Shown here one piece after another: positions 585-3,295 of a DNA stretch of 13,993 nucleotides. The stretch is from a virus. Its lineage: Duplodnaviria > Heunggongvirae > Uroviricota > Caudoviricetes. The stretch is from IMG/VR virus record IMGVR_UViG_2654587792_000016; one strand, written 5' to 3'. The stretch's first letter is position 1; every line of letters begins with the position of its first letter. The position numbers and the translations under genes are program-made. The notes under the pieces were generated by a model. It was not told the DNA's origin. It saw only the letters and a program-made list of their open reading frames with translations, and searched no databases.

Positions 585-1200
585 GGATAAAAATGTAGAG
601 CATGTATTAGTTGATGCAATTGAAAATAAGCAATCTTTAACAGTCGTTTACTTAGGAGGGAGCCAGCCCGGAACATTAAGGAATATTTCTCCGATTAGTA
701 TAAATGGGGATAAGTTGCGGGCAAGATGCCATAGTTCTGGAGCAGTAAAGGTTTTCAATCTTGGGAAAATACAGTTACCCAGTAACTCCTGCGCGGTATC
801 TATGCACTATGGAGATTTAGAAGTTAAAGCTTATGAGACGATGCAGAGCGTAAATGACAACTTTCATGCCCTTTATCCTGAAGGACGATGGGGTGTTGAT
901 TTTAATGAGCATCGCTTTGCTTTATTTGATTTTTTTAAAAACGGGAAACGAAAAAAAACGGCATTTATGGCAATTGAGTTCAGGGAAAGAGATGAAGAGA
1001 AAATAATAACAGGTGTAACAATTGATATTGGTATATCTGGAACAGTGATTTCTGAGAAATCCCGAATCCCAAAAAGACGACCATGGGTAGTGGTTGGTCC
1101 CGAACACGGAGAATACAGTACTTATTCAACTTTGGACAAGGCTGCTACAGCGTTTTTTGAGAGACTTTCGTTGATAGCATCCGGCCTGGAAGATAATTGA
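583..1200 (+). CDS. Hypothetical protein, 205 aa, AT-rich cargo (moron) gene between Q and the lysis cassette; N-terminal third loosely WYL/SH3-like; function unknown
   Basis: ORF 556-1200 in the track; preferred start is ATG 583 because GGGAGG at 572-577 sits 5 nt upstream. Stop TGA 1198-1200. The region is visibly AT-rich compared with the flanking phage genes. Residues about 15-70 (SLTVVYLGG...TLRNISPISINGDKLRARCHSSGAVKVFNLGKIQL) have an alternating hydrophobic/basic pattern reminiscent of WYL-type beta-barrel domains; this is pattern recognition only. No HTH or catalytic motif recognised. Confidence 0.6.
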   Translation: MDKNVEHVLVDAIENKQSLTVVYLGGSQPGTLRNISPISINGDKLRARCHSSGAVKVFNLGKIQLPSNSCAVSMHYGDLEVKAYETMQSVNDNFHALYPEGRWGVDFNEHRFALFDFFKNGKRKKTAFMAIEFRERDEEKIITGVTIDIGISGTVISEKSRIPKRRPWVVVGPEHGEYSTYSTLDKAATAFFERLSLIASGLEDN

Positions 1201-1329
1201 TTTTATGTTTGGTATTCAGAGTTCGCCGTGCTTAAGAAAGTCAAGATTCTAAAAATACTGAATGAGCTACTTGTGTTATAACAAAAATGCTATTAGTGTG
1301 TTAAGAGTGGTTACTTCGCCACACAACTT

Positions 1330-1355
1330 AAACCCGCCACTGAGCGGGTTTTTTG
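1330..1355 (+). terminator. Rho-independent terminator after the cargo gene
   Basis: Stem acccgc (1332-1337) pairs with gcgggt (1344-1349), loop cactga, extendable by A-T pairs at 1330-1331/1350-1351, followed by a T run at 1349-1354. Confidence 0.6.
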
Positions 1356-1476
1356 TACCTGTAAACTTGGTGCAGTACAGTAAACACGCTGGTGGTCGTG
1401 AATACTGACTTTTTATCTTGCTGGCTTTTTAGACAAGAGTTATTGGTATGTCATGTTAACCAGAAGGGAAAAAGAC

Positions 1477-1680
1477 ATGCTAAAACAGCAAGATATGACA
1501 GAAACCGCCGCCGCAGTCCTTCATTTCTTACCTGCTGACAAGTGGGTAACGCCACGCATGATGACGAGAACTACCGGAGTAAGCGAAGCCCGGTGCCAGT
1601 TAATACTGACTCAGTTAGTTCTGGCGGGGCTGGCGAAGGATAACGGCGGGTACGGGAATAAATTCAGACGCTGCCAGTAA
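1477..1680 (+). CDS. Small winged-helix/HTH-like DNA-binding protein (67 aa from ATG 1477; 75 aa from ATG 1453)
   Basis: ORF 1453-1680; AGAAGGGA at 1462-1469 lies 7 nt before the in-frame ATG at 1477. The segment VTPRMMTRTTGVSEARCQLILTQLVLAGLAK reads as a helix-turn-helix with a recognition helix. It lies directly upstream of the methyltransferase on the same strand. Confidence 0.5.
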   Translation: MLKQQDMTETAAAVLHFLPADKWVTPRMMTRTTGVSEARCQLILTQLVLAGLAKDNGGYGNKFRRCQ

Positions 1681-1830
1681 TGGCGGTTTCCTGCTGTGAA
1701 AATGGGCGGCTGGTGGGTGTTGGTAGCACCTGCCAGCCATTCGCTCATGCTTACTGGTCACAAGCGAACCACGGCCCACTGCTTTAGCGCAAAAGCAGAG
1801 TGAGCCTACCAGAGTTACGCTTACTGATCC

Positions 1831-2883
1831 ATGAAAAATACTGTAAAAATAAACAGTGTTGATTTAATCAACGCTGATTGCCTGCATTTTATTCAGTCCC
1901 TGCCTGATGATTCCATTGACCTGATTGTTACCGATCCGCCGTACTTCAAGGTGAAACCCAACGGTTGGGACAATCAGTGGAAAGGGGACGAAGATTACCT
2001 TAAGTGGCTGGACCACTGTCTGGCCCAGTTCTGGCGGGTGTTAAAACCTGCCGGAAGCCTTTATCTGTTCTGTGGGCATCGCCTGGCATCTGATATTGAG
2101 ATCATGATGCGTGAACGTTTCAACGTGCTTAACCATATCATCTGGGCGAAGCCGTCCGGACGTTGGAATGGGTGTAATAAAGAAAGTCTGCGCGCATATT
2201 TTCCTGCCACAGAGCGCGTTCTGTTTGCTGAACATTACCAGGGGCCATATCGCGGCAAAAGTGACGGCTATGCAGCAAAAGAAAGGGAACTCAAACAGCA
2301 CATAATGGCACCGCTGATATCGTATTTCAGGGATGCTCGTGCCGAACTGGGTATAACGGCAAAACAAATTGCCGAAGCCACAGGTAAGAAAAATATGGTT
2401 TCCCACTGGTTTGGTGCCAGTCAGTGGCAGTTGCCGAATGAGGCTGACTATCGGAAGTTACAGGCACTGTTTTCCCGTATAGCGGCAGAGAAGTTTCAGG
2501 AACAACAACTGGAACAACCACACCACCAGCTGGTGGCATCTTATGATTCACTGAATCGCAAATATTCTGAATTGCTGGATGAGTTTAAATCTCTCCGGCG
2601 CTATTTCTCCGTATCAGTCTCCGTGCCTTATACCGATGTCTGGACGCATAAACCCGTTCAGTTCTACCCGGGTAAACATCCGTGCGAGAAACCGGCGGAT
2701 ATGCTCCGGCAAATAATCAATGCCAGTAGTCGCCCTGGTGATATGGTTGCTGATTTCTTTATGGGATCCGGTTCCACAATAAAAGCAGCAATGGCGCTGG
2801 GGCGTCGGGCGTTAGGTGTTGAACTTGAGTCAGAGCGGTTTAATCAGACGGTGAAAGAGGTAAGTGAACTGGTGGGGAAATAA
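1831..2883 (+). CDS. DNA amino-methyltransferase (N6-adenine or N4-cytosine), beta-class, apparently orphan
   Basis: 350-aa ORF. Motif IV DPPY (LIVTDPPYF) is near the N-terminus and the SAM-binding motif I (FFMGSGST) near the C-terminus, the circular permutation typical of beta-class amino-MTases (CcrM/HinfI/PvuII-like). The roughly 250-aa region between them contains an HTH-like stretch (ITAKQIAEATGKKNMVSHWF). No restriction endonuclease ORF is adjacent. Confidence 0.85.
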   Translation: MKNTVKINSVDLINADCLHFIQSLPDDSIDLIVTDPPYFKVKPNGWDNQWKGDEDYLKWLDHCLAQFWRVLKPAGSLYLFCGHRLASDIEIMMRERFNVLNHIIWAKPSGRWNGCNKESLRAYFPATERVLFAEHYQGPYRGKSDGYAAKERELKQHIMAPLISYFRDARAELGITAKQIAEATGKKNMVSHWFGASQWQLPNEADYRKLQALFSRIAAEKFQEQQLEQPHHQLVASYDSLNRKYSELLDEFKSLRRYFSVSVSVPYTDVWTHKPVQFYPGKHPCEKPADMLRQIINASSRPGDMVADFFMGSGSTIKAAMALGRRALGVELESERFNQTVKEVSELVGK

Positions 2884-2959
2884 TTCTGGTGGCCACGTTG
2901 CGTGGCCTTTTTATTTCCAACACAGCACCCGCAAATATCGCGAGGTGAGAGATGACGAA

Positions 2960-3295
2960 ATGCCTCATAACCCAAATACCTGGCCGGACTGGCTGGAGTT
3001 GTTTCAGAGCTGGTGGCGTGGAGACACGCCGCTGGGTGCAGTGATTATGTCGATCGTTATGGCTGGTTTGCGCATCGCCTATTTTGGCGGTGGTGGTGGC
3101 TGGAAGCGAAAAACGCTCGAGATTTTGCTCTGTGGCGCTCTGACGCTGACCTTTGCATCCGCTCTTGAGTATGTCGGATGGCCTAAATCACTTTCTGTTG
3201 CCATTGGTGGCGGTGTGGGGCTGATCGGTGTCGATGCTATTCGTGGGGCTGCAATGCGAGTAATCGGTAACAAGTTTGGTGGCTCTAAGGAGTAA
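2960..3295 (+). CDS. S: Holin, lambda S-like class I (three predicted transmembrane segments)
   Basis: The track ORF 2864-3295 begins at a GTG inside the MTase 3' end; the preferred start is ATG 2960 with GAGGTGAGAG at 2942-2951. The hydrophobic segments and C-terminal VGLIGVDAIRGAAMRVIGNKFGGSKE align in pattern with lambda S ([20 protein letters not shown]). It lies immediately upstream of R. Confidence 0.8.
   Translation: MPHNPNTWPDWLELFQSWWRGDTPLGAVIMSIVMAGLRIAYFGGGGGWKRKTLEILLCGALTLTFASALEYVGWPKSLSVAIGGGVGLIGVDAIRGAAMRVIGNKFGGSKE

Follow-up and report, generated by a model that had tools for sequence, protein, structure and literature searches.

The question raised by this locus is how phages silence, and then deploy, a methyltransferase of the M.EcoGII type. 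M.EcoGII serves as the standard case of adenine methylation without sequence specificity, and is a widely used reagent for Fiber-seq, DiMeLo-seq and MadID-type chromatin mapping; to our knowledge, phage silencing followed by deployment of such a dangerous enzyme has not been described. The window, that is the whole stretch of 13,993 nt of viral DNA that was analysed, had been predicted to contain a small protein gene coupled to an orphan methyltransferase gene, with a possible operator or attenuator between the two. The region is a self-contained late-operon cassette of a lambdoid prophage, composed, in this order, of a terminator, a small winged-helix gene, a hairpin/terminator, a 135-nt leader, the methyltransferase gene and a last terminator (Table 1). 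The kind of enzyme is already known; neither the leader nor the small protein that accompanies it has been described. Throughout, promoters, transcript ends and translation of the cassette are predictions from sequence.

Table 1. Features of the cassette, in window positions.
Feature	Position	Strand	Remarks
Strong intrinsic terminator	1330..1360	+	AAACCCGC / GCGGGTTT, then T run
Promoter-like box	1418..1454	+	consensus CTTGCTG, ~17 nt, TATCTGTATGTCAC; window, TATTGGTATGTCAT
Shine-Dalgarno of small ORF	1463-1467	+	AAGGG
Small ORF	1477..1680	+	67 aa; winged-helix protein; PHROG 331
Hairpin across small-ORF stop codon	1670..1687	+	GCUGCCA-GUAA-UGGCGGU (folding)
Structured leader RNA of methyltransferase	1693..1835	+	about 135-143 nt; covariance model 155 bits
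Leader helix A	1703-1707 / 1774-1778	+	
Leader helix B (inverted repeat)	1708-1719 / 1727-1738	+	GGCTGGTGGGTG / CACCTGCCAGCC; 12 nt, 83% complementary, 7 nt apart
Leader helix C	1740-1745 / 1763-1768	+	
Loop C segments	1746-1749 and 1756-1760	+	complementary to 1825-1833 (UGAUCCAUG), start codon included
Leader hairpin D	1779-1785 / 1792-1798	+	
Methyltransferase ORF	1831-2883	+	350 aa; M.EcoGII-family beta-class N6-adenine methyltransferase
DPPY (motif IV)	1933-1944	+	residues 35-38; read from translation
TRD with HTH	about 2308-2541	+	central insertion of methyltransferase
FxGxG (motif I), here F-M-G-S-G	2758-2772	+	residues 310-314; read from translation
Intrinsic terminator	2891..2915	+	GGCCACG-TTG-CGTGGCC, then T run; closes cassette, upstream of holin gene

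An M.EcoGII-family gene in a late-operon cassette

The methyltransferase had been assigned to the beta class, with DPPY before FxGxG and an HTH-containing insertion, and this assignment is borne out. In the profile search, PF01555 is matched with 145.7 bits (cut-off 26.7) over residues 29-341; PADLOC MTase_II is matched with 505 bits, and the relatives found in the PDB are M.RsrI, CcrM and M.MboIIA. The order DPPY, TRD, FxGxG makes the enzyme a beta-class methyltransferase, in agreement with the M.EcoGII alignment. The central insertion, which contains a weak HTH_3 match (residues 167-193), corresponds to the TRD of M.EcoGII, modelled at residues 160-237 as an HTH-containing four-helix bundle (PMC11551740). 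When the two enzymes are compared over their full length, TRD included, 282 of 349 residues are identical (81%, with 2 gaps), the M.EcoGII reference being that of Table S1 in PMC11551740. By sequence, the window enzyme thus belongs to the M.EcoGII family.

M.EcoGII is a prophage-borne, non-specific m6A methyltransferase of E. coli (PMC5778455). The reconstructed ancestors of its clade are also non-specific, and the window allele is, as judged by eye, nearer to one of them, Anc291 (PMC11551740). By extrapolation from M.EcoGII at 81% identity, we infer that the window allele would methylate adenines non-specifically as well. M.EcoGII is silent during normal growth and lysogeny, its constitutive expression is harmful and induction is thought to activate it; both M.EcoGI and M.EcoGII are reported to be inactive in normal growth (PMC5778455). 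Of the two roles initially proposed for the enzyme, host epigenetic modification in the lysogen is therefore unlikely, as the cassette lies behind late-operon terminators and M.EcoGI and M.EcoGII are reported inactive; anti-restriction self-methylation of phage DNA would fit, by analogy, the published biology of M.EcoGII (PMC5778455).

In the window, as in every relative inspected, the antiterminator gene Q precedes the cassette and the lysis genes follow it. Its neighbours in the window are Q, a WYL-like ORF and the holin, endolysin and Rz genes; the upstream neighbour varies between relatives, and the order Q, cassette, holin/lysin is the same whichever of three Q families or of several holin families is present. 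The terminator at 1330..1360 is the left edge of a cassette common to SfV, Ayreon, mEp460 and Stx2c phages, the phage matches beginning at query position 132, i.e., position 1331 of the window. Terminators are annotated in SfV and Ayreon at the places equivalent to those at 1330..1360 and 2891..2915. Among 5426 complete E. coli genomes, 1720, about one third, have a match to cassette DNA (window positions 1200-3000), which extends over at least 80% of its length in 1091 of them; Stx2c phages carry the cassette too. There is no restriction gene in the cassette, and no nuclease is conserved beside it in the window and the relatives inspected: the methyltransferase is, as predicted, an orphan of phage origin, with no restriction partner in the cassette or conserved next to it. 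The window contains neither tRNA nor tmRNA.

The hairpin that spans the stop codon of the small ORF is weak, U-poor and terminator-like in the window. Its counterpart in M.EcoGII-type loci is a genuine intrinsic terminator, as found in scans of L004 and of L019 (GCCTTCCGCAGTGAAGGC followed by T6), the latter being an E. albertii locus whose enzyme is 95% identical to M.EcoGII and which has the same leader and small ORF upstream. A hairpin with a T-rich tract was also seen by eye in the loci inspected, a subset of 45, several of them devoid of the small ORF.

A structured leader RNA before the methyltransferase

The predicted inverted repeat is present between the two genes. As also predicted, it is not a terminator: the hairpin exists, the U tract is missing (the next sequence is AUUCGCUCAUG) and the repeat is absent from the terminator scan output. 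A single 12-nt repeat in 600 nt is unremarkable alone; this one recurs in 68 distinct homologous sequences, with compensatory changes that maintain its pairing. Its predicted role as an operator or attenuator can be narrowed. The attenuator-like direction is upheld, the repeat being helix B of a leader RNA, and the DNA operator is not, as the repeat behaves as an RNA helix.

The leader is present in exactly one copy per locus according to the covariance model, and the gap between small ORF and methyltransferase is fixed at 147-154 nt. Leaders from different genera are 78-92% identical by BLAST. Over 780 locus pairs, mean identity reaches 86% in the leader, as compared with 48% at third and 83% at first and second codon positions of the methyltransferase, and these comparisons indicate that purifying selection acts more strongly on the leader than on the silent sites of the enzyme. 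An exact 21-nt leader core occurs in 118 copies in 120 viral contigs, and in all but 4 of the copies that can be judged downstream (about 114) the methyltransferase ATG lies 130-132 nt 3' of it. In the sequences searched, the leader is found solely before the M.EcoGII-type methyltransferase family. It is absent before 76-78%-identical methyltransferases of Erwinia endophytica and one Pantoea, and is thus not indispensable; the covariance model detects no leader upstream of the diverged methyltransferases of these two, of Catenovulum and of a Chlorobi MAG, and locus L036 retains only its last ~25 nt.

A search of Rfam 15 (4227 families) gives nothing at gathering thresholds across the whole window and, at E <= 10 over 1300-1900, terminator-type or chance matches only, none of them on the + strand of the leader. 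The small RNAs HnrS and EcOnc are different elements. In the full-text literature, we found no account of the leader, of the regulation of M.EcoGII-type genes, of prophage small RNAs at this site or of structured RNA before phage methyltransferases. The leader may constitute a new RNA family.

The structure derived from the alignment has 96.1% of its cells paired. Its covariation score, 0.087 against a shuffle mean of 0.057, is reached by none of 500 shuffles. Most leader positions are invariant, and the covariation comes from a small number of pairs, of which one is strong and four or five are rare. The covarying partners of helix C, 24 nt apart, are CG in 30 leaders, AU in 18, UA in 15 and UG in 4, and are never broken. 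Compensatory changes are seen in helix A (L030), in helix B (L042) and at several places in L037; the strands of the junction are variable, the helices and loops invariant. When the 5' leader domain is folded alone, its MFE structure is a three-way junction. Backed by the compensatory changes in the alignment, these results indicate that the leader forms a three-way junction.

It could be argued that positions 1693-1830 are conserved as DNA, i.e., as a recombination joint of mosaic phages, a protein-binding site or a promoter. Such a reading would suit the E. coli alleles in which different small-ORF types stand beside 100% identical leaders, the four viral contigs that switch to foreign DNA precisely behind helix B, and the mosaic small ORFs, which combine a type B N-terminal with a type A C-terminal part in P0052-P0057. 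The leader is, however, conserved even between genera in which the silent sites of the methyltransferase have reached saturation. Four pair types, with none broken, occur at the paired positions that covary at a distance of 24 nt, helices A, B and C show compensatory double changes, and no sigma-70-like promoter is predicted inside the leader. Conservation at the DNA level is thus very unlikely.

A coding or trans-acting function of the leader, as a small peptide gene or as an independent small RNA, is highly improbable. The AUG at 1702 is invariant and opens a reading frame (MGGWWVL...) closed by a common UGA; its product would have 33 aa in the window, as in 18 of 68 distinct leaders. In 29 of the 68, however, the frame stops after 7 codons, the remainder being of many other lengths, and direct reading reveals no Shine-Dalgarno at a usable distance; a peptide-coding leader was rejected for these inconsistent lengths. 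As for a small RNA, no terminator follows hairpin D, so that no discrete 3' end is predicted, and the element never occurs away from the start of a methyltransferase gene.

The 3' part of the leader includes the start of the methyltransferase, whose ATG is not preceded by a Shine-Dalgarno. The pairing between loop C and the start region is canonical in 97-99% of cases, one of its pairs being GU, GC, AU or UA, and the 5 nt before the AUG have an unpaired probability of 0.1-0.3 (averaged over 40 orthologues). An alternative fold exists. The two folds of the full-length leader are, in the window, about 1-1.5 kcal/mol apart (-55.4 vs -56.9; 1.1 under slightly different constraints). Among the orthologues, the energy gap between them is +3.4 kcal/mol on average with a standard deviation of 4.6, and lies within 3 kcal/mol in 15 of 40; this scatter does not bear out a tightly conserved bistable energy balance. 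Nor was the thermodynamic MFE fold accepted as the structure under conservation: the stems in its interior (GGC/GCC, CAC/GUG and AAGCG/CGCUU) are broken without compensation, and the fold as a whole does no better than shuffles. The GGUCA/UGAUC pairing is the only part retained from it, and the alternative helix A' is backed solely by one-sided changes.

A minimal winged-helix protein beside the leader

The predicted 67-aa ORF was confirmed at its coordinates, directly upstream of the methyltransferase and on the same strand. It ends at 1680 and has two candidate starts, 1453 and 1477; the latter is favoured, because a conserved AAGG stands 9-10 nt upstream of it, the ATG at 1453 is unconserved and RefSeq calls an ORF of 204 nt. 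The promoter-like box upstream is conserved in an alignment of 29 distinct upstream regions, and also between E. coli and Kosakonia; its -10 match is poor in the window, and it is regarded as a putative promoter.

The comparison of homologues reveals both a coding signal and selection, and the AF2 model of the protein is a bare winged helix of 67 aa. The third helix (RCQLILTQL) is nearly invariant among alleles that otherwise differ by 50%. A profile search among 1.84 billion representatives retrieved only the small family of the protein itself, with no fusions found; the PDB sequence search gave chance matches only (E about 1), NCBIfam and PADLOC gave none, and no HMM relation to any characterised winged-helix family was detected. 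The small protein is thus a real, selected, minimal winged helix of a tiny orphan family. Databases name part of its homologues 'TrmB family', a name that no profile backs. The sole profile match is MarR_2, at 14 bits for a cut-off of 27; a MarR/TrmB-type factor was rejected on account of this score and because the protein has only 67 aa, without flanking dimerisation helices.

The conservation of the small ORF, on which its significance had been made to depend, is partial: it is coding and under selection, but is absent from 13 of 46 species-level loci that retain leader and methyltransferase. About 33 of the 46 have the gene immediately 5' on the same strand, as do 109 of 113 viral copies with the methyltransferase and enough upstream sequence to judge. 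Conversely, the protein lies upstream of leader and methyltransferase in every context inspected. A search with the small ORF alone returned 80 viral loci, 78 with the methyltransferase and 2 cut by contig ends, and has little power since all are 100%-identical copies.

In the original prediction, the small protein held the place of the controller protein of a restriction-modification system. Its DNA operator would be the repeat at 1708-1738, and binding there would set the timing or level of methyltransferase transcription. The frequent upstream position on the same strand agrees with this, and the near-invariant third helix would suit a conserved nucleic-acid target, e.g., the invariant leader. 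The model is nevertheless unlikely. The fold is a winged helix rather than an Xre HTH and, when the protein was compared with controller and other HTH families as had been suggested, HTH_3 was not matched and MarR_2 remained below its cut-off. The restriction gene is missing, and a simple pattern test found no C-box-like palindrome, GACT-N(2-6)-AGTC, in 1300-1900. The repeat varies as an RNA does, being G-U-tolerant, strand-asymmetric and compensatory, and is part of a larger junction. Finally, a terminator-like hairpin separates the two genes, 13 loci lack the protein but retain repeat and methyltransferase, and the commonest allele of the latter has a net charge near -1 by manual count and is thus not basic. 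The controller analogy is not supported.

One possibility, which we retain tentatively, is that the small protein is a trans-acting partner of the leader RNA, repressing in the lysogen or activating late. Its target could otherwise be the methyltransferase itself or methylated DNA, with a role as a cofactor, a binder of m6A-DNA or a shield against m6A-dependent nucleases; the idea as a whole is speculative. Its strict co-location with leader and methyltransferase is in favour of such a partnership. So are its own conserved promoter-like box and Shine-Dalgarno, and the terminator before the methyltransferase, with which the small gene could be expressed independently. Furthermore, RNA binding (SelB) and m6A sensing (DpnI, HhiV4I) are both known among winged-helix domains (PMC11037411). 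The protein is however dispensable in a quarter of the species-level loci, and has no detectable sequence relation to characterised winged-helix families.

Proposed mechanism and relation to known systems

With moderate confidence, we favour a late cassette that methylates progeny phage DNA and in which the leader RNA gates translation of the methyltransferase. The gene would be transcribed only once Q-modified RNA polymerase passes the flanking terminators, in late lytic growth, and the adenines of progeny phage DNA would then be methylated in most sequence contexts, so that restriction would be blunted in the next host. As the enzyme would be harmful to the cell, the leader would hold leaky transcripts untranslated: the start codon, devoid of a Shine-Dalgarno, and the 6 nt preceding it would pair with the loop that is conserved in helix C. 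In the alternative fold of similar energy, the start region would instead pair with GGUCA in a long-range stem. Some trigger would then refold the RNA and so free the start site. This could be: (i) high late transcription, (ii) RNase processing of the long A'/B hairpin, (iii) the small protein, (iv) a metabolite, or (v) RNA self-methylation. The winged-helix protein would be an optional accessory of the cassette, regulator or cofactor, and not a controller protein. No published evidence for hypermethylated virion DNA of these phages was found.

A bolder version, which seems to us improbable, is that the leader is a bistable switch RNA reserved for m6A methyltransferases without sequence specificity, sensing a signal linked to enzyme activity to set the dose of a methylase that acts genome-wide and is potentially lethal, with the small protein as a Z-alpha-like reader of RNA or modified DNA. 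The signal may then be SAM/SAH, the winged-helix protein, or methylation of leader adenines by an RNA-active enzyme, in an 'm6A switch' feedback.

The leader, which precedes the enzyme family across Enterobacterales, offers a concrete handle on the regulation of these genes, and the small protein represents a winged-helix family of orphans whose genetic partner is defined. If phage DNA is hypermethylated, the cassette would bear on escape from restriction-modification and BREX-type defences, and on sensitivity to m6A-dependent type IV nucleases.

The closest known systems are M.EcoGII and M.EcoGI, non-specific N6-adenine methyltransferases of DNA and RNA from prophages of E. coli O104:H4 (Murray et al. 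2018, PMC5778455). The window gene, a different allele, shares with M.EcoGII 81% identity extending to the TRD, the beta-class order, a length of 349-350 aa and the prophage location, and the same small ORF and leader stand upstream of the 95%-identical M.EcoGII-type allele of L019. Neither the upstream ORF nor the leader is described in that study, where the term 'upstream' has 0 occurrences (PMC5778455).

The C proteins of type II restriction-modification resemble the small protein as small proteins of nucleic-acid-binding type encoded just upstream, on the same strand. The latter differs by its winged helix in place of the Xre HTH, by the absence of a restriction gene and of any C-box found, by the terminator-like hairpin and 135-nt leader that separate its gene from the methyltransferase, and by its dispensability in many loci. 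In the model, its fold of ~65 residues resembles the winged helix of Z-alpha domains (ADAR1, PKZ, ZBP1, poxvirus E3L). Structural matches to Z-alpha, IclR, TrmB and ArsR are 8-25% identical to it, those to Z-alpha 8-17% among the matches listed, with no HMM relation to these four families. In a manual alignment anchored on the invariant Gly, the Z-DNA contacts Asn173 and Tyr177 of Z-alpha are replaced by Gln41 and Thr45; the wing aromatic alone is retained (Trp195, here Phe63/Tyr), by manual alignment and not by structural superposition.

The leader is reminiscent of riboswitches and of translation-gating leaders, such as those that hide the initiation site of toxic or phage genes, as a conserved, structured 5' UTR placed directly before the regulated gene, with a start region complementary to a conserved upstream segment. 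Like riboswitch-type switches, it is predicted to have two mutually exclusive folds that share nucleotides and are of similar energy in the window, their energies being scattered across orthologues. It differs from known leaders and riboswitches in matching no Rfam family even at E <= 10, and is a putative switch.

As a whole, the cassette resembles the morons of lambdoid and Stx prophages, of which Juhala reportedly wrote in 2000, in being a terminator-insulated insert that follows Q/PR' and precedes the genes for lysis. Typical morons benefit the host through expression in the prophage state. In EHEC prophages, the same position downstream of PR', a convergent site of small RNAs, carries stx and the anti-sRNAs AgvB/AsxR (PMC4104026). 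The M.EcoGII-type enzyme differs from morons in that it is reported to be silent in the lysogen and harmful if expressed (PMC5778455).

The methyltransferase and its prophage setting

The window comes from a lambdoid E. coli prophage, of which it is the late region; there, the cassette lies between the antiterminator gene and the lysis genes (see table). The original prediction of a beta-class methyltransferase with DPPY ahead of FxGxG is borne out, and the "long insertion" that it described is the TRD, whose HTH-like segment gives a weak HTH_3 match (residues 167-193); for the TRD of M.EcoGII, a published model shows a bundle of four helices that includes an HTH (PMC11551740). The enzyme aligns with M.EcoGII (reference sequence from Table S1 of PMC11551740) at 81% identity over 349 residues, and an E. 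albertii allele (L019) with the same upstream elements is 95% identical to M.EcoGII. From these alignments, the enzyme very probably belongs to the known, characterised M.EcoGII family, and it is thus not novel. M.EcoGII acts on adenine regardless of sequence context, in DNA as well as RNA; its gene is carried by a prophage, is silent during normal growth and is deleterious under constitutive expression, and its authors have suggested that expression is turned on at prophage excision (PMC5778455). By homology, the window allele would also be non-specific.

As anticipated, no restriction gene adjoins the cassette, and its upstream neighbour varies among relatives. The surrounding 1.8 kb are 90-99% identical to SfV (orf47/orf48), mEp460, phage cdtI, Ayreon and Stx2c-converting phages, and the same region is matched in 1720 of 5426 complete E. 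coli genomes. The matching records label the small ORF and the methyltransferase only as "hypothetical protein" and "DNA methyltransferase", and terminators are annotated on either side of the cassette in SfV and Ayreon.

Features of the cassette and its surroundings (window coordinates)
Feature	Coordinates (strand)	Description
Antiterminator Q	31-507	PF06530
WYL-like ORF	556/583-1200 (+)	205-214 aa; RefSeq start equivalent to 583; between Q and terminator 1330-1360
Small ORF	1477-1680 (+)	67-aa winged-helix protein
Leader	1693-1835 (+)	covariance-model match
Helix A	1703-1707/1774-1778 (+)	UGGGC/GCCCA; one compensatory G-C to A-U, in L030
Helix B	1708-1719/1727-1738 (+)	G-U-tolerant changes; compensatory G-C to A-U in L042
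Helix C	1740-1745/1763-1768 (+)	UUCGCU/AGCGAA; several compensatory changes in L037
Hairpin D	1779-1798 (+)	invariant
Methyltransferase ORF	1831-2883 (+)	DPPY residues 35-38; FMGSG residues 310-314
Downstream of cassette		lambda-type holin, endolysin, Rz/Rz1, then terminase, portal, head genes

Several other elements were observed around these genes. The WYL-like ORF has a weak match to phrog_8498 (WYL-domain), and all that it matches otherwise are WYL profiles, weakly and below threshold (Pfam E = 0.0096, 16.3 bits for a cut-off of 21.8; PADLOC E = 0.0013). A promoter-like site is predicted near 556-584; if this is PR', the lysogen would constitutively transcribe the ORF, which lies upstream of the terminator. 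Other cargo occupies this slot in relatives, e.g. an opposite-strand AAA_15/AAA_21 ATPase. Immediately before the strong terminator, a CACAAC motif (1300-1360, +; CGCCACACAACTTAAACCCGCC...) resembles the AgvB-type prophage anti-sRNAs of the same "moron" slot, in which a CACAACA mimic of the GcvB seed is joined to a conserved terminator part (PMC4104026). All that Rfam yields here is a sub-threshold STnc130 match to the minus strand of 1322-1458 (30 bits, E = 0.016). Within the methyltransferase coding region, a predicted terminator-like hairpin with a T-rich tail (2029-2056, +) is probably a chance match.

Conservation and structure of the leader

The leader is under selection and exclusive to this methyltransferase family. 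The spacer between the small ORF and the methyltransferase is of constant length (147-154 nt) and 78-92% identical from E. coli to Kosakonia, Mixta, Buttiauxella, Mangrovibacter and Rosenbergiella, whereas nucleotide identity among the methyltransferase genes is only about 70%. Averaged over the 780 pairs formed by 40 species-level loci, identity is 86% for the 135-nt leader, against 48% at third and 83% at first and second codon positions of the methyltransferase. An exact 21-nt core, AATGGGCGGCTGGTGGGTGTT, is present in at least 120 viral contigs; of the 118 copies that extend far enough downstream for an assessment, about 114 have the methyltransferase ATG 130-132 nt 3' of the core, and in the four exceptional copies the element is truncated past helix B, where foreign DNA begins. 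Each locus gives exactly one match to a covariance model (155 bits in the window), and nothing resembling the leader is found in Rfam.

Leader alignments, made with MAFFT (40 sequences) or model-based (68 distinct sequences), support a three-way junction, in which 96.1% of alignment cells pair. Its helix B is the 12-nt inverted repeat noticed originally, which includes two G-U positions and lacks a T tract. One helix C pair is found as C-G (30), A-U (18), U-A (15) or U-G (4) and is never broken. The covariation score is 0.087, compared to 0.057 in shuffles (0 of 500 reach 0.087) and 0.02-0.06 for slid controls. The compensatory changes in the helices are hard to reconcile with a purely DNA-level cause of the conservation, even though the leader clearly plays the part of a mosaic joint too. 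It is likely that the leader is a functional cis-acting RNA. A coding leader was rejected: the invariant AUG at 1702 opens MGGWWVL, and the frame is 7 codons long in 29 of 68 leaders and of many different lengths in the others. In the window, this upstream ORF (1702-1803, +) encodes 33 aa, with two adjacent Trp codons.

The helix C loop is composed of two conserved halves, CAUG (1746-1749) and GGUCA (1756-1760), separated by 6 nt of variable sequence. As a pair, the halves are complementary to contiguous UGAUC-YAUG (1825-1833), i.e. the start codon and the preceding nucleotides; this pairing is 97-99% canonical, one pair being G-U (52), G-C (11), A-U (3) or U-A (1). No Shine-Dalgarno sequence precedes the methyltransferase, the upstream sequence reading GAGTTACGCTTACTGATCC-ATG, and the 5 nt that precede the AUG are largely base-paired (unpaired probability 0.1-0.3, orthologue average). 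In the first 16 codons (1840-1879, +), ACTGTAAAAATAAACAGT and a 14-nt inverted repeat, AAACAGTGTTGATT/AATCAACGCTGATT, give predicted hairpins just 3' of the start codon in most orthologues; these may belong to the initiation-region structure.

A competing helix, mutually exclusive with helices A and C, pairs the invariant AUGGGC with GCUCAU (1743-1748) and is 99.6% canonical, with one-sided changes only. For the 5' domain alone, the MFE of the window sequence is the junction; at full length, the two folds are about 1-1.5 kcal/mol apart (-55.4 vs -56.9; 1.1 under slightly different constraints). As their energy difference over 40 orthologues is +3.4 kcal/mol on average (sd 4.6), a switch is no more than plausible. 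Finally, AAUGGGCGGCUGGUGGGUGUU (1700-1721, +) is invariant across genera and its pairing partner varies; it contains four closely spaced G tracts (GGG-C-GG-CU-GG-U-GGG), so that folding into a two-tier RNA G-quadruplex, which would be a third conformation, is conceivable.

At an Erwinia endophytica locus (L036:2680-3000), a methyltransferase 78% identical to that of the window follows a terminator and a ~125-nt spacer that is similar in length to that of the window and unrelated in sequence; only some 25 nt at its 3' end (GCGTTTACTGGCCTATGG) are like the initiation region of the window. This spacer may be a second leader type.

The small winged-helix protein

The small ORF predicted directly upstream is real, as 2-4 synonymous codons are used at invariant residues (T8, L18, R39, L42, L44, T45, L47 and others; 28 distinct genes), and its start at 1477 is favoured by a conserved AAGG Shine-Dalgarno sequence and by the alignment. 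AlphaFold2, given a 31-sequence alignment, confidently predicts a minimal winged helix (pLDDT 88; H4-17, H26-33, H37-49 and a two-strand wing). The suggested profile search returned no Pfam family above cut-off, and the protein falls in PHROG 331 (function unknown). The analogy with controller proteins does not hold: the fold differs, there is no nuclease, a C-box-like palindrome was looked for and not found, and a hairpin straddles the stop codon; in M.EcoGII-type loci this hairpin is clearly an intrinsic terminator, and in the window a weak one. Z-alpha domains are 8-17% identical to the protein, and other listed winged-helix matches up to 25%; in a manual alignment, the Z-DNA-contacting Asn and Tyr of Z-alpha are replaced by Gln41 and Thr45, and we do not claim Z-DNA binding.

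The family is tiny, with 96 cluster representatives among 1.84 billion, all of about 110 aa or shorter and none a fusion. Its alleles are mosaic and differ by about 50%, MLKQQDMT and the third helix RCQLILTQLxxAGL being kept. Homologues P0052-P0057 join the N-terminal half of the 63-aa "type B" to the C-terminal wing of the 67-aa "type A" at the invariant RCQLILTQL segment, a pattern suggestive of intragenic recombination. Wherever its context was inspected, the same gap and then the methyltransferase lie downstream of the small gene. It is present in 33 of 46 species-level leader loci (with one premature stop and one internal deletion) and absent from the other 13, where the methyltransferase and the conserved sequence before it are kept. 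Two further observations concern this region. A box 5' of the small ORF, CTTGCTG-N17-TAT(C/T)TG-TATGTCA (1418-1454, +), is strongly conserved in all 29 distinct aligned loci; it is promoter-like with a poor -10 and contains a short CAGA/TCTG palindrome. One IMG/VR contig (2698536677_000006, L116) has two copies of the small ORF, leader and methyltransferase start, 3 kb apart, one methyltransferase being disrupted after about 57 codons, at an N in the sequence.

Proposed mechanism and relation to known systems

The cassette, insulated by terminators, would be transcribed late in infection, and by Q-modified polymerase only. The leader would sequester a start site lacking a Shine-Dalgarno sequence, so that stray transcripts stay untranslated, until some trigger opens it; the enzyme would then methylate progeny DNA broadly, ahead of packaging. 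The winged-helix protein would be an optional accessory with its own conserved promoter-like box, and possibly the leader's partner. Our results show the enzyme family, the genomic position and the leader helices; we lean slightly towards the composite mechanism for the whole cassette, and consider the chances of translational gating by the leader specifically to be even.

The enzyme has been described before, and the cassette is widespread and has been annotated. The conserved structured leader, which has no Rfam family and was not found in full-text literature searches, appears to be undescribed, as does the dedicated orphan winged-helix partner protein. The finding would matter far more if the leader turned out to be a switch that responds to a ligand, a protein or methylation. 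The whole is best described as a known enzyme in a new regulatory variant, and not as a new kind of system.
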